Below, one piece after another: positions 28,731-33,021 of a stretch of DNA of 64,000 nt; within the stretch, counting starts at the first letter, position 1, and each line of letters starts with the position of its first letter. The translations under genes were made by a program, and so were the position numbers. This stretch comes from Massalongia carnosa (taxonomy: Eukaryota). The notes under the pieces were generated by a model. It saw only the letters and a list, made by a program, of their open reading frames with translations. It searched no databases and had not been told where the DNA came from. Where the stretch lies: assembly GCA_965645245.1 (NCBI GenBank), contig OZ287087.1:682001-746000 (forward strand), written 5' to 3'.

Positions 28731-31700
28731 ATGACTTCCTCAGATGCGTGGGAATGTTCTTCAGATCCGTCGGCCTCGAGGTCCTACTCCTCCGCTTGGT
28801 CATCCTCTCTGGGCTCCGCCTCCAACATCTTCATGTACTCGAGATCAGACTCAGTCACGCCGGACGCAAAAATCAACTGGGATATGAAGTCCATTTTTGA
28901 CATATTATGGAGAACCGGGATACCTGGTCCTCACCTACTTCGATCAACGAAAGAATTCACACTGGGCATGGGTAAAGGCTCCCAGGGATATGTTTGGGCT
29001 GCATGTGACTTATTCGCAAGTGCGAGGGATTCCATTTCGCATGACCTGATGGTCGGCTGCAAAGGTCGTTAGATGGCTGGACAGCTTGTGTGATCAAACG
29101 AGTACGTTCTGATGGGAAGCAAGACCTCCGGCAGCAAGTTCGATCCACCTACAGCGAAGTAATAAGACTGTGCCATAATGATTTACGCAACCACGAAAAT
29201 ATAGTGAAGTTGATTGGATGGGGGTTGTGTTTGGATTCTTTGGAGACCGTTACTGCGGAAGACCCGAGATTACCGCTCCTTATTTTGGAGCGAGCGCATT
29301 GTGATCTAGGCATGTTCCTCGACGATTCGAATTCGGAAAAGACATCAATCGTCGTCCTTCGGGAAATCTGTCTCGCCATTGGAAGAGGCCTGGGAGCTGT
29401 TCATGCTGCAGGATTTGCACACGGCGACTTAAAACCAGCTAATGTCTTGATGTTTGCCGCAAAGAAAGAGAAAACGTGGAGCATGCAGAGATGGATTCCC
29501 AAGCTGTGTGACTTTGGCTCTTCAAATGTGAAGCAATACCTGGGAAGTCCTGGCTGGCAGCCACCAGAGTACTACGAACAAGATAAGGATAACGTGCTAG
29601 AATCTCTACAGCCGTGTGATGTGTTCGCGTTTGGTGTTCTTGCTGCTGCTCTGTATGTTGGACGTTCATCTTCTCCCCTTGATGATTTCGGCAATCTAGA
29701 TCGGGATGAGATCCGTCAAAGATGTCAGCGTCAATGCTTTTTACACCAAGCAGTATCGGCAGTGCGCCATAGATGGGCCGCTATAATCGCAGAATACCTT
29801 GGGCCTTCTAACAGAAATGATCTTGATCATGATCATCATCGTTACTTAGATATGATTACAGACGAGCGTAATCGATATTTCGCTGTCTTGCGAAGCTCGA
29901 TGAACTACCATCAATCGTCTAGAGAAGCTCAGCCATGGCGCTATATGAACTCTGCCCGCTTTCCTATTATTGGTCCTCCCGTGGATGATCTCGATGGCGA
30001 TATAAACCTAATGTCGGAAGCCAGATTACCCTTCCGTCTACAAGAGTCTTGGCGATCTCCGAGGAAGTCTAGCATACTTGAACAGATTCTCGCAATTTTC
30101 CCCACTCAATTAGCAGCGACATTGCCGAATGTGAAACATGTGCAGGAAAGAATCAATTCGTGGCAACAGAAACTCTGGAAATGGTTTCTACTTTTATTGC
30201 AATCAAAGAGCAATCGACAAATAACAATCGAGTCTATTCTAGCAATCATTGAGTCTCATGCACACATAGGATGGGACGACAGCGAAATCAGCACTTTCGC
30301 ACATTCTGAACCTCATATTTGTTATGTGTATACTCTATTAAATGCTATCCATGAAGCAGAGTCCTATCCGACGATCTTTGACCTACTCTCTCTACGCTAC
30401 GCAAGAGCCCGACTTCGAAGTCGATTTAGTATAGGCTGCTGGCAGAAGGCTAATGTCAGTGAAAATTTCTTATCGGAATATCTTCACTCATCATTTCCGT
30501 ATGATATTGCTCCATTAGCTTGGCTCTGTCGTGGCGACGTCGGCATGCATGAATTGTTGAAGCTCGGAGAGAACACCGAGCTTCTTTGGAGCTGTACCAA
30601 TGACAGTCGGTTGTCCGACACTTTTAAATCAGAGGCATTTCTCTTATTCTTCGAAAGAGGGTGTAACATAGCACAAAACATAGGCCCAGACGAGAGGTAA
30701 GTTATCAAAATTATCTGTACTCGATTATCTTTTGATGGCATCAGTTGATAGCTTATGCTATCTGCATTACATTGAGTGGTTATTTTTGCTTAAAAGTCTA
30801 TGCTGCTTAAATATGTCGCCGATTTCAGGCAGTAGGGGGAATGGCCTTTTTAAATCCTTCCTTTTCTTTTCGAATCTAACATTGATTTCAGAACAGCTTT
30901 TCAGCGTTATCTCGAATCTCTCAATGATGACAAAGAGGCTATCGTGATATGTGAGCATTTTAAGCGCATTAGTGAGTGCGAGAACATTGCCCCATGGACA
31001 CGATTCTTCTTAACTGGTCAGCCTTCGGACCTCATTGATGATCCGGAAGTCGAGACGCAGGCTTTTTCTACCACGGCGTTACACGATGCTGTACGCGTGT
31101 CAAACTATGAAGTTGTGGAATACCTTGTGCGCACTAATTTTGTGGTTGAGGCGCAAGATACATTTGGTGAAACTGCTCTTGATTTGATTTTCAACCTGAG
31201 GAATCCGCGTAACCGGATTCTAAATAACCGAATCTTGGCTCTCTTACGCCAGCGACGAACAAAACCTACTGCGAATTCAAACAGAGAAAGCCATATTCGA
31301 CACCCGGAATTGCCAATTGGATGGGAGGTCTCTGTAGCTGAAAATGGGAGTAAAATCTATCAGGAAACAAGCATAGGATCTAATATCGATGCTCTCACCT
31401 TTGAGCAGCCCTCCGCTGGTTTGCTGGACGATAAGAGACTTGTAATAGGGGAGAGGAAGGTCAAGGGTTTGGGACAGCCGTATTTTCTTGATCCTCTACG
31501 CTTTATGAGCAGCCGAGTTGAAGCAGCAGATGACATGTACGAAGACTTGCGTCGGTCACAACACCTGTCTCCAGACAAGACTCGACAGGAACTTGCTCGC
31601 AACAAGTTTGCAAACCGGCCTAGAATAGCGAAGGAGCCACATTACGACGATCTATGGTATCATCACGAGGCTGAAGCAACGGCATCGTTAAAATTAGTCA

Positions 31701-33021
31701 ACCCTCTCTATGACGATAGAGTAGGGGTGAGATACTTTGTTCGGATGCTCTTCATAACTCGACAGATCCTTTTATCAAATTATCTAAATGTTCTCTTGCT
31801 GTTCATACCATTGAGTATTGTCGCACAAAAACTAGATTGGAGCATGGTCGCTCGAGTTGCCTTTAGCGTGCTGGCAATAGGTCCGCTAGCGGCGAATATA
31901 GTTTTGGCAACAAAAGAACTGTCAAAAAAACTGCCTTCCACACCTCTCAATCAAAGGTTTGTTGTTGTTCTGAGCAGTTGCTCTCCGGAGGTATTTGTAA
32001 GTCCATCGGTCTTTCACAAACCCAGTTTCACAAAGCATCACAAAATTCCCTGCAATCCATTTTCGTTTAGCTTTTTTCAACTCAATCGATAGAGACTGTC
32101 AACAAACTGCTGACCTGGACAAGATCGAAGTATCTGCTGTTGTTAGGGGAGGTGTCAATCTTATGAAGTCAGTCATAATTGGGGACATTCTGTTTACATA
32201 TCTAGTAGGTTTCAGTTAACCCTTAGTCTGCCCGAAACGCTAACCTTGAGCAGCTGCTGGGAATCTGCGTCACCATCAGTGGTTTATTTCATCGGGAGCA
32301 GACTCTTTATTATACTCCAGCTGGTATAATGGCTCATCTCGGGGTTATTCCAATCATATTCGAGATCATACTGTCGCTATTCTACACAATGCGCATCGAC
32401 TCAGCGCCCTTTGAGGTCATCGCAGGAGTGCTCTTCTTGTCACGCATCGCAGCCATCATCTCCCTCATCCTCTGGTTTGGTTTTCTCTGTTTCCGCTACG
32501 TATCTCATCGAGAACTCTTCTTCGAGGAAGAAGGCGAACAGCTTAATGAAGAGCTTCATGACACTTTTTTAGATCCCGTGGCTGCATTAGTCCTACTGAT
32601 AGTATCGGCACTTTTACTAGCAATCTGCTGTGACAATCTTGCTCAAATCATCCTCCATTGTTCCGAGCGCCAGACGAGGCTCCTTGGACTATTGCTTGTG
32701 CCTGCTGCCACGAAGTGTTGGACTCATGTGCCATCTGTGCAACAAGCCATGCGGAACAGATTGGATTATACTCTGGACTGGACGGTTGGAGCTGGTCTGT
32801 ATACGACGCTGTGCATCGGTCCTTGCCTGGTCGTGTTGGGCTGGATAATTGGCGTGCCTATAGATCTACGTTTCGGGTTGAGGGAGACGATCAGTTATGG
32901 TGTGGCTATTTGGGGTATCAACATTATTATCGCCCGACGCCTAGTCAATTACTTGAACGGAATCATCATTATAATTTTGATAAGTCTAATTATCTTCAGT
33001 TTTGTCATTTATTCTCCATAG
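28731..33021 (+). CDS. Ser/Thr kinase-ankyrin-WW-Ca2+/H+ exchanger (CAX/Vcx1)-like fusion, about 1290 aa. Inferred exons 28731-29019, 29073-30696, 30892-31996, 32124-32204, 32254-33021.
   Basis: Kinase motifs GKGSQGYV, VIKR, HENIVKLIG, HGDLKPANVL, CDFG. Ankyrin TALHDAV...QDTFGETALD. WW LPIGWE. CAX-like NVLLLFIPL, ATKEL, HREQ, SHRELF, VVLGWIIGVP.DLRF. The first junction could be a frameshift rather than an intron. Confidence 0.78.

Follow-up and report, generated by a model that had tools for sequence, protein, structure and literature searches.

Exchangers of the Vcx1/CAX type (4k1c, 9vsa, 4kjs) swap Ca2+ for H+ through a membrane fold made of two inverted halves with about 11 helices, and the type II members, such as yeast Vnx1, have long N-terminal extensions. 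The closest described system in which a kinase meets this fold is that of plant CAX1, where Ser/Thr kinases (SOS2/CIPK24 and BIK1/PBL1) act at the cytosolic N-terminus, as reported in a 2026 review (PMC13591097). Transporter folds have also been reused for signalling or fused to signalling parts in Ssy1, Snf3/Rgt2, CbrA (an SLC5-like part with a histidine kinase) and LYCHOS (a PIN-like transporter with a G-protein-coupled receptor); these belong to other superfamilies, and in excerpts of the papers on such transporter-derived sensors and hybrids (PMC12958826, PMC4238866, PMC7096432, PMC11525196) none has a CaCA/CAX fold or a eukaryotic kinase in one chain. Here we describe a gene in a stretch of 64,000 nucleotides from Massalongia carnosa (GenBank assembly GCA_965645245.1, contig OZ287087.1, positions 682,001 to 746,000; hereafter the window), in which a kinase, an ankyrin-like region, a WW-like module and a CAX-fold membrane domain are joined. 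Unlike in the plant CAX1 system, where the kinase is separate and the exchanger active, in this gene the kinase is fused to the exchanger fold and the exchange site is degenerate. Our reading, to which we give a probability of roughly 55%, is that in a conserved ascomycete family a non-exchanging, CAX-derived membrane module anchors a non-arginine-aspartate (non-RD) kinase, and probably gates it or senses for it.

On the + strand, positions 28731-33021 hold one gene of four exons and about 1,306 codons, as read from the window and its spliced frames. It starts with an ATG at 28731, ends with the stop TAG at 33019-33021, and was found by tblastn as a single copy within the window. Its parts are listed below, P0001 being a predicted protein of the same family.

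28731..30696, + strand: exon 1, starting MTSSDAW..., with a Ser/Thr kinase at about 28950-29720 and, in the middle, a stretch of helices that passes into ankyrin-like repeats (LAWLCRGDVG...); its N-terminus aligns with P0001 (tblastn of P0001 residues 45-117 and 120-669)
30697..30891, + strand: intron 1, 195 nt, GTAAGT...CAG, phase 2, interrupting the ankyrin-like helical region
30892..31996, + strand: exon 2, in which ankyrin-like helices (30893-31261) and a WW-like module (31310-31411) are followed by a conserved linker and, at 31715-31996, by the helices with which the CAX membrane fold begins
31997..32123, + strand: intron 2, 127 nt, GTAAGT...AAG, phase 0, three codons past the alpha-1 glutamate
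32124..32204, + strand: exon 3, whose 27 codons encode the latter half of alpha-1 (IEVSAVVRGGVNLMKSVIIGDILFTYL)
32205..32253, + strand: intron 3, 49 nt, GTAGGT...CAG, phase 0
32254..33021, + strand: exon 4, the remaining CAX fold (equivalent of Vcx1 residues 143-403) and the stop TAG

All three introns are of the GT..AG type with compatible phases and all six splice sites are intact. When the introns are removed, 1,201 codons can be read from 29045 to the TAG with no stop, and the collinear high-scoring segment pairs (HSPs) given by tblastn of P0001 and of a second relative, P0009, stop at 30697 and restart at 30890, on either side of intron 1. An earlier note, made from the letters of this DNA, had joined the kinase to ANK, WW and CAX-like parts by phase-compatible introns; the joining into one gene was borne out by the three introns and the open spliced frame, and the segment that it had marked as 30892-33021 corresponds exactly to exons 2-4. 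It could be argued that the kinase and the CAX part are two adjacent genes that were wrongly merged, as a caller based on open reading frames (ORFs) gave merely a fragment of 194 residues at this locus (P0004). We find this barely credible: no stop lies between the two parts once the three canonical introns are removed, intron 1 cuts a helical repeat region that carries on across it, and at least 15 proteins, drawn from several sources of annotation, have the identical domain order.

The membrane part of the protein was assigned to the CAX fold by sequence as well as by predicted structure. When exon 4 was compared with the PDB sequences by phmmer, it matched yeast Vcx1 (4k1c) over residues 143-403 with an E of 4.2e-24, followed by Arabidopsis CAX1 (2e-13) and YfkE (3e-9). 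The AlphaFold2 model of exon 4 has a predicted local distance difference test value (pLDDT) of 92 and a predicted template modelling score of 0.84; in Foldseek it matched 4k1c_A with an E of 5.4e-9 and a template modelling score of 0.81, and all seven matches at E <= 1e-3 were CAX structures. Exons 2-3 align to canonical CAX helices 1-4, and the window gene has both inverted halves and about 11 helices, the outer ones included. The cytosolic loop that joins the two halves is also retained:

32509..32562, + strand: acidic cytosolic loop, RELFFEEEGEQLNEELHD

The number of Asp and Glu residues in this loop has a median of 8 in the kinase-fused group, and of 8 in canonical CAX. The gene has the fold, the helix order, the acidic cytosolic loop and the alpha-1 glutamate in common with the Vcx1/CAX exchangers, and differs from them in its altered alpha motifs, in the loss of Ser-Ser-x-Gln in transmembrane helix 8 (TM8), and in an N-terminal module of about 900 residues that comprises the kinase, the ANK-like and the WW-like parts.

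The same architecture was found in other fungi. A HMMER scan with exon 4 went through 1.84 billion representatives and returned 1,410 proteins at E <= 1e-3; a Pfam scan covered 24 of the 150 exon 4 matches listed, and seven of these 24, all of 1,000-1,400 residues, carry Pkinase (P0007, P0009, P0010, P0047, P0053, P0081, P0126), as does P0001, which likewise has a C-terminal CAX-like domain. Searching the longer proteins with exon 1 yielded 79, and in a local scan with hidden Markov models (HMMs) 15 of those tested were found to carry most or all of the CAX part, further kinase-CAX proteins being P0169, P0171, P0172, P0173, P0176, P0184 and P0198; the architecture is present in at least 15 predicted proteins. 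Their named sources are Lambiella insularis, eleven metagenome-assembled genomes of Teloschistaceae, Glonium stellatum and Botrytis cinerea, and the kinase-CAX family spans three ascomycete classes (Lecanoromycetes and those of Glonium and B. cinerea). The B. cinerea orthologue is BCIN_16g05010, for which the entry of strain BcDW1 bears the name 'putative calcium proton exchanger protein', and proteins of the family already stand in public databases as hypothetical proteins.

About 20 more proteins from ENA/Logan, of 1,040-1,080 residues, end in '..VS' a few residues past the alpha-1 glutamate, and such ends would be expected from an ORF caller that reads into a GT intron at the position of intron 2 of the window. 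Relatives with kinase, ANK-like and WW-like parts that lack the CAX part exist as well (e.g. P0003, P0177, P0178, P0190). Among the matches there are also proteins of 750-800 residues which, like type II CAX such as Vnx1, bear a CAX domain at the C-terminus of a far longer chain; unlike the window gene, the long matches of this kind (P0101, P0120, P0141, P0143) keep the canonical GNAAEH and none has a kinase. A word-index protein search with exon 4 among longer proteins gave only two CAX proteins of Coemansia. In metagenomes, a first scan (alignment A2) confirmed no locus, and a second (alignment A4) gave 79 loci. Of the two best, L001 matched most of the query but showed nothing of the CAX part, and the match of L002 was confined to the kinase; the remaining 77 match the query in places only, chiefly in the kinase.

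In a maximum-likelihood tree of 84 rows equivalent to exon 4, from which 13 near-identical Botrytis and Wetmoreana rows had been removed beforehand, a branch with a Shimodaira-Hasegawa-like approximate likelihood ratio test (SH-aLRT) value of 96 parts 24 rows from 60 canonical CAX. The group of 24 is made up of all 10 known fused proteins together with 14 short ORF fragments that are presumed to derive from fused genes. Terminal branches are 0.25-1.9 long in the fused group, versus mostly 0.13-0.7 among the canonical proteins, and among the 10 full-length members the kinase has the highest mean pairwise identity (0.55), followed by the WW-like module with its linker (0.44), the ANK-like region (0.41) and the CAX part (0.32-0.34). 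Judged from the alignment, the CAX membrane domain appears to be the least constrained part of the protein, yet one that is clearly maintained across three classes. The earlier note had raised neutral decay of the CAX part as the outcome that would speak against its proposal; alignment, tree and residue states point the other way, as both the domain and its altered motifs are conserved across the three ascomycete classes. By the tree, the fusion is one old and well-supported group and not a graft specific to a lineage.

The departure from the canonical exchangers is concentrated at the alpha-repeats, and the two sites read as follows in the window:

31973..31990, + strand: alpha-1 site SSCSPE, at the place of canonical (F)GNAxE; the Gly-Asn is gone and the Glu kept
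32707..32727, + strand: alpha-2 site ATKCWTH, at the place of canonical (V)GNAAEH; Asn is replaced by Lys, Ala by Trp and Glu by Thr, and the His is kept

Neither GNxxE at alpha-1 nor GNxxEH at alpha-2 is present, the window having SCSPE and TKCWTH. The earlier note had placed both sites here and had called them degenerate, and alignment with canonical CAX agrees on the places and on the alteration of both motifs; what had escaped it is that the alpha-1 Glu is retained and that a Lys or Arg is conserved at alpha-2. Of the 35 family rows that extend over the alpha-1 Glu, 32 have an acidic residue there. At the alpha-2 Asn position the fused group has Lys in 12 and Arg in 10 of its 24 rows, whereas canonical CAX have Asn in 57 of 60. 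Where canonical CAX have the alpha-2 Glu (49 Glu and 4 Asp in the 60 rows), the eight residues seen most often in the 24 fused rows do not include Glu. Similarly, the Gln of TM8 is found in one of 24 fused rows versus 58 of 60, and both Ser of that helix are also replaced in the fused group; Trp stands at the second Ala of alpha-2 in 11 of 24 (Ala in 41 of 60 canonical rows), and the alpha-2 His is present in 14 of 24 versus 47 of 60.

It was reported, in the excerpted sections of PMC10227063, that E72Q or E255Q abolishes transport by YfkE, both alpha-repeat glutamates being needed, and that in VCX1 the alpha-2 Glu coordinates Ca2+ directly. Since in the fused group the alpha-2 Glu and the polar residues near it are replaced, and since E255Q abolishes transport in YfkE, Ca2+/H+ exchange by the fused domain is judged very unlikely, and the earlier suggestion of a non-transporting domain is upheld at that strength. 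Altered alpha-2 motifs were also seen in unfused CAX proteins (P0012, P0088, P0098 and P0104, with GNATKH, GNVAKH, GKASEL and GNSVKY), so that a degenerate exchange site is not peculiar to the proteins fused to a kinase.

The same residues could be read as those of a protein that goes on transporting, though with another substrate or another coupling (for instance cation-independent), and that its own kinase regulates in cis. All membrane helices are kept, the new pocket residues are conserved (Lys or Arg in 22, His in 14 and Trp in 11 of the 24 rows), and alpha-repeats vary with substrate across the CaCA superfamily (PMC10227063, excerpts). Nevertheless we consider this quite unlikely, as the lost alpha-2 carboxylate is both Ca2+ ligand and H+ carrier and a single change of Glu to Gln abolishes YfkE transport (same excerpts), the Gln and both Ser of TM8 are replaced, and the terminal branches of the fused group are long.

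On the reading that we favour, the protein would consist of a cytosolic non-RD (HGD) Ser/Thr kinase, a helical, ankyrin-like region, the WW-like module, a linker and a complete CAX-fold domain which would no longer swap Ca2+ for H+. A conserved Lys or Arg, often together with a Trp, would have taken the place of the alpha-2 Asn with the alpha-1 carboxylate kept. Because this replacement is orderly, with a basic residue at the Asn place beside the kept carboxylate, an intramembrane ion pair is suggested, in which the Lys or Arg would form a salt bridge with the alpha-1 Glu and fill the former cation site as a built-in cation mimic. The CAX module would hold the kinase on the membrane and would probably change its conformation with pH or cation load, aided by the retained acidic loop, and this change might be relayed to the kinase fused at the N-terminus of the module. 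As the CAX N-terminus is targeted by the kinases SOS2 and BIK1/PBL1 (PMC13591097, excerpts), the kinase is, by this analogy, fused where plant CAX1 bears its kinase-targeted regulatory region. A more specific form of the proposal is that of a 'transceptor kinase', with the CAX part as a self-liganded sensor: protonation of the Lys/Arg-alpha-1 Glu pair, or competition by cations, would flip the alternating-access machinery and in this way gate the kinase. We offer it tentatively, at odds well short of even.

A role that requires no sensing was also considered, in which the dead CAX domain would be a targeting pseudo-subunit that joins genuine Vcx1-type exchangers and delivers the kinase to them, so that the protein would regulate Ca2+/H+ exchange at the vacuole. 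CAX proteins assemble into homo- and hetero-oligomers, non-functional halves can interfere with or complement full transporters, and kinases activate CAX1 via its N-terminus (PMC13591097, excerpts); the retention of the entire fold, outer helices included, is also in keeping with such a role. However, this role does not require the conserved rebuilding of the pocket, and we regard it as unlikely.

The N-terminal kinase scored 58.1 bits with Pfam Pkinase in exon 1 (cut-off 31.7), and the motifs CVIKR, HGDLKPAN (non-RD, HGD) and CDFG can be read in the window. Across 41 aligned family rows there is little or no variation in the Lys of VxK, in HGDLK..N, in DFG and in PPE, and with these catalytic motifs kept the family kinase looks active; the closest solved kinases are distant (CDK6, BRI1, B-Raf and LRRK2, E about 2e-5). 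For the region that follows, AlphaFold2 modelled residues 1-123 of exon 2 as a stack of helices with pLDDT mostly above 90, and among the Foldseek matches listed for it all but one or two are ankyrin-repeat proteins, many of the alignments having a root-mean-square deviation of about 1.5 A over about 65 columns. The best E was only 2.3e-3, there being no match at E <= 1e-3 for this model. A search of the ESM Atlas with exon 2 gave ankyrin clusters only, with scores of 0.89, which is under the lead level of 0.9, and the best single ankyrin-like stretch scored 17.7 bits against designed ankyrin-repeat proteins.

When a profile built from 13 WW-like segments of the family was run against the PDB, 29 of its 30 matches at E <= 10 were to proteins with a WW domain, the top one being the fourth WW domain of WWP2 (E 0.0012). 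In the family the first Trp and the Pro of the module are invariant and the second Trp is a Phe, and the exon 2 model has strands at 144-148, 154-158 and 168-169. The fourth WW domain of WWP1/WWP2 has LPxGWE...TF..P in common with it, including the Phe in place of the second Trp; unlike that domain, the Teloschistaceae members of the family have long loop insertions. We call the module WW-like, which is short of a proven WW domain.

Non-RD kinases have been linked with innate immune receptors, and the earlier note had listed, beside an anchor and a sensor, an integrated decoy or guard, in which a CAX look-alike would bait effectors or toxins directed against Ca2+ exchangers and trigger the non-RD kinase. 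The HGD motif, the transposon-rich surroundings with a HeLo-like/DUF7580 gene adjoining, and the divergent copies or haplotypes within the same sequencing runs (both described below) are in its favour. Yet Pfam gave no match to NB-ARC, NACHT or any other domain of nucleotide-binding and leucine-rich repeat (NLR) proteins at E <= 0.1 in any exon translation, nor to NB-ARC or NACHT in the 10 family members scanned (thresholds 0.1 and 0.001); furthermore, the fused proteins of all three classes fall into one group of old origin, and their presumed bait surface departs from real CAX in a conserved way, where a decoy should mimic its target. The decoy is the weakest of the three roles and we hold it to be highly improbable.

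The allele in the window itself carries a lesion:

29044..29045, + strand: frameshift site with one C fewer, which puts the glycine loop (frame of 28731) and CVIKR (frame of 29045) out of frame

This deletion of one nucleotide interrupts the Pkinase frame in the N-lobe, between the glycine loop and the VxK motif with the catalytic Lys, and tblastn of P0001 gave two HSPs in different frames on either side of 29043-29047. The earlier note was right that a kinase is present and had missed this frameshift in exon 1. A short intron at 29043-29070 that would bridge the two frames was considered and rejected, the only GT..AG pair there spanning 21 nt and the P0001 alignment being gapless save for one base. 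Contigs of four public runs (X1, X2, X4 and X5) were compared with the window, and in all four of them an extra C behind 29044 rejoins the frames. In X1 the form with the C has a depth of 900 of 2467, and in X2 the only contig that covers the site has it. X1 also has contigs identical to the window, at a depth of about 480-500, that span the frameshift site; the deletion is probably real in that sample, which may be the window's own source. X4, from another study, has one contig of 12,358 nt over the whole stretch compared; this contig is 98.9% identical (47 substitutions) and contains the extra C as well as 3 nt inserted in frame, the gene being otherwise collinear. In an ORF taken from a contig that is likewise 12,358 nt long, 2 of 230 residues differ from exon 4 of the window.

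With its glycine loop cut off by the deletion from the remainder of the kinase, the window's copy may be inactive. That the gene here is a recently disabled allele, a pseudogene regardless of what the family does elsewhere, is a serious possibility which we place somewhat below an even chance. The next in-frame Met lies past the catalytic Lys and helix C, the X1 contigs identical to the window cover the site beside a variant contig with the C, and copia, gypsy and Tc5 elements surround the locus. On the other hand, there is no further damage in the other 1,201 codons or at any of the six splice sites, and the contig of 98.9% identity from another study has the C in an otherwise collinear gene. 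In addition, since X1 may be the window's source, a systematic sequencing error at CC/CCC is possible.

A second form of the sequence was seen in X1, X2 and X5 (28782-31451). It is about 5% divergent, is covered about twice as deeply as the window-identical contigs, and bears indels of -3, -1, -4, -1, +1 and +3 in exon 1, the sum of which is not a multiple of three; it ceases to match at 31158 and 31451, upstream of the membrane domain. It may be a degenerate or truncated paralogue, a divergent haplotype, or another genotype of the thallus.

Several points weigh against the reading of a membrane-anchored and possibly gated kinase. Because the window's allele is frameshifted, no functional claim is made for this copy. 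That kinase and CAX part form a single transcript is indicated by gene structure and by annotations in other species, no RNA run having been found among nine public runs, and the 14 short rows of the fused group in the tree are only presumed to be fragments of fused genes. The alpha-1 position is Val in two and Gln in one of the 35 rows, Lys or Arg is absent at alpha-2 in two of 24 rows, the contact between Lys/Arg and the alpha-1 Glu is a putative one, and the conserved Lys/Arg, Trp and His of the pocket would fit a transporter with a new substrate too. All Pfam Ank models fall below their cut-offs in the window (Ank_5 22.4, Ank_2 19.1 and Ank 16.8 bits) and Pfam WW gave nothing at E <= 0.1; the ANK and WW labels given earlier stand as an ankyrin-like helical stack and a WW-like profile, and fail as Pfam assignments. 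The Na_Ca_ex model, proposed earlier as a check, scored 22.6 bits on the exon 4 ORF, below the cut-off of 24.9, with the CAX identity coming instead from phmmer and Foldseek. Such a score fits a divergent member of the family, and the relatives P0007, P0009, P0047 and P0053 exceed this cut-off.

Outside the gene, its two neighbours are as follows:

26525..28381, - strand: divergent neighbour with a HeLo-like N-terminus and a DUF7580 kinase-like domain (Pfam)
33503..34861, + strand: downstream neighbour, a Tc5/pogo-type DDE transposase (DDE_1 161.8 bits, HTH_Tnp_Tc5 61 bits)

The divergent neighbour, the start of which lies about 350 bp from that of the kinase-CAX gene, scored 36.9 bits with DUF7580 (cut-off 27), and with HeLo (20.8) and PigL_N (19.5) below their cut-offs; its layout is reminiscent of fungal cell-death proteins of the MLKL type. 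The kinase-CAX and HeLo-like genes form a small island amid transposable elements, as most long ORFs in the window are copia, gypsy and Tc5/pogo proteins, among them two polyproteins of gypsy type, with chromodomain or integrase, and several fragments of copia type (element stretches 2-3469, 4798-10112, 14238-15257, 18791-20986, 51316-53345 and 54143-59811). An ORF at 17070-18290 (+) has NDC10_II, domain 2 of the CBF3 centromere-binding protein (52.4 bits), a domain that is also borne by some fungal mobile elements, and one at the end of the window, 63250-63999 (+), has an AFT transcription-factor domain (32.2 bits). Among the database matches, three long predictions with canonical CAX are joined to PALP and an F-box-like domain, to a P-type Ca2+-ATPase or to an alpha/beta hydrolase (P0050, P0064, P0130); they are probable merged gene models, and the join of ATPase and CAX would be of interest if real.

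The earlier note did not recognise this architecture as described, and the literature search agrees: no description of a kinase-CAX fusion was found, Bcin16g05010 included, with supplements lying outside the search. No exchanger-, ankyrin-, transmembrane- or transporter-fused kinase of this type was found in the fungal kinome paper PMC2838846, and no report was found of a CaCA/CAX fold reused for signalling or of a eukaryotic kinase fused to such a fold. The CaCA-derived version of the transporter-signalling fusion, with a eukaryotic kinase, thus appears to be undescribed. The family is a natural experiment in what the CAX fold is capable of when the exchange site is gone, and transport-independent roles of plant CAX1 were raised independently in the 2026 review (PMC13591097, excerpts). 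As the tractable B. cinerea has the orthologue BCIN_16g05010, the family is open to direct testing. If the self-liganded sensor proposed above is true, filamentous ascomycetes, B. cinerea among them, would have a path within one chain by which the pH or Ca2+ status of the membrane leads to phosphorylation, and the family may indicate an unrecognised route of Ca2+/pH signalling in lichen-forming and other ascomycetes.

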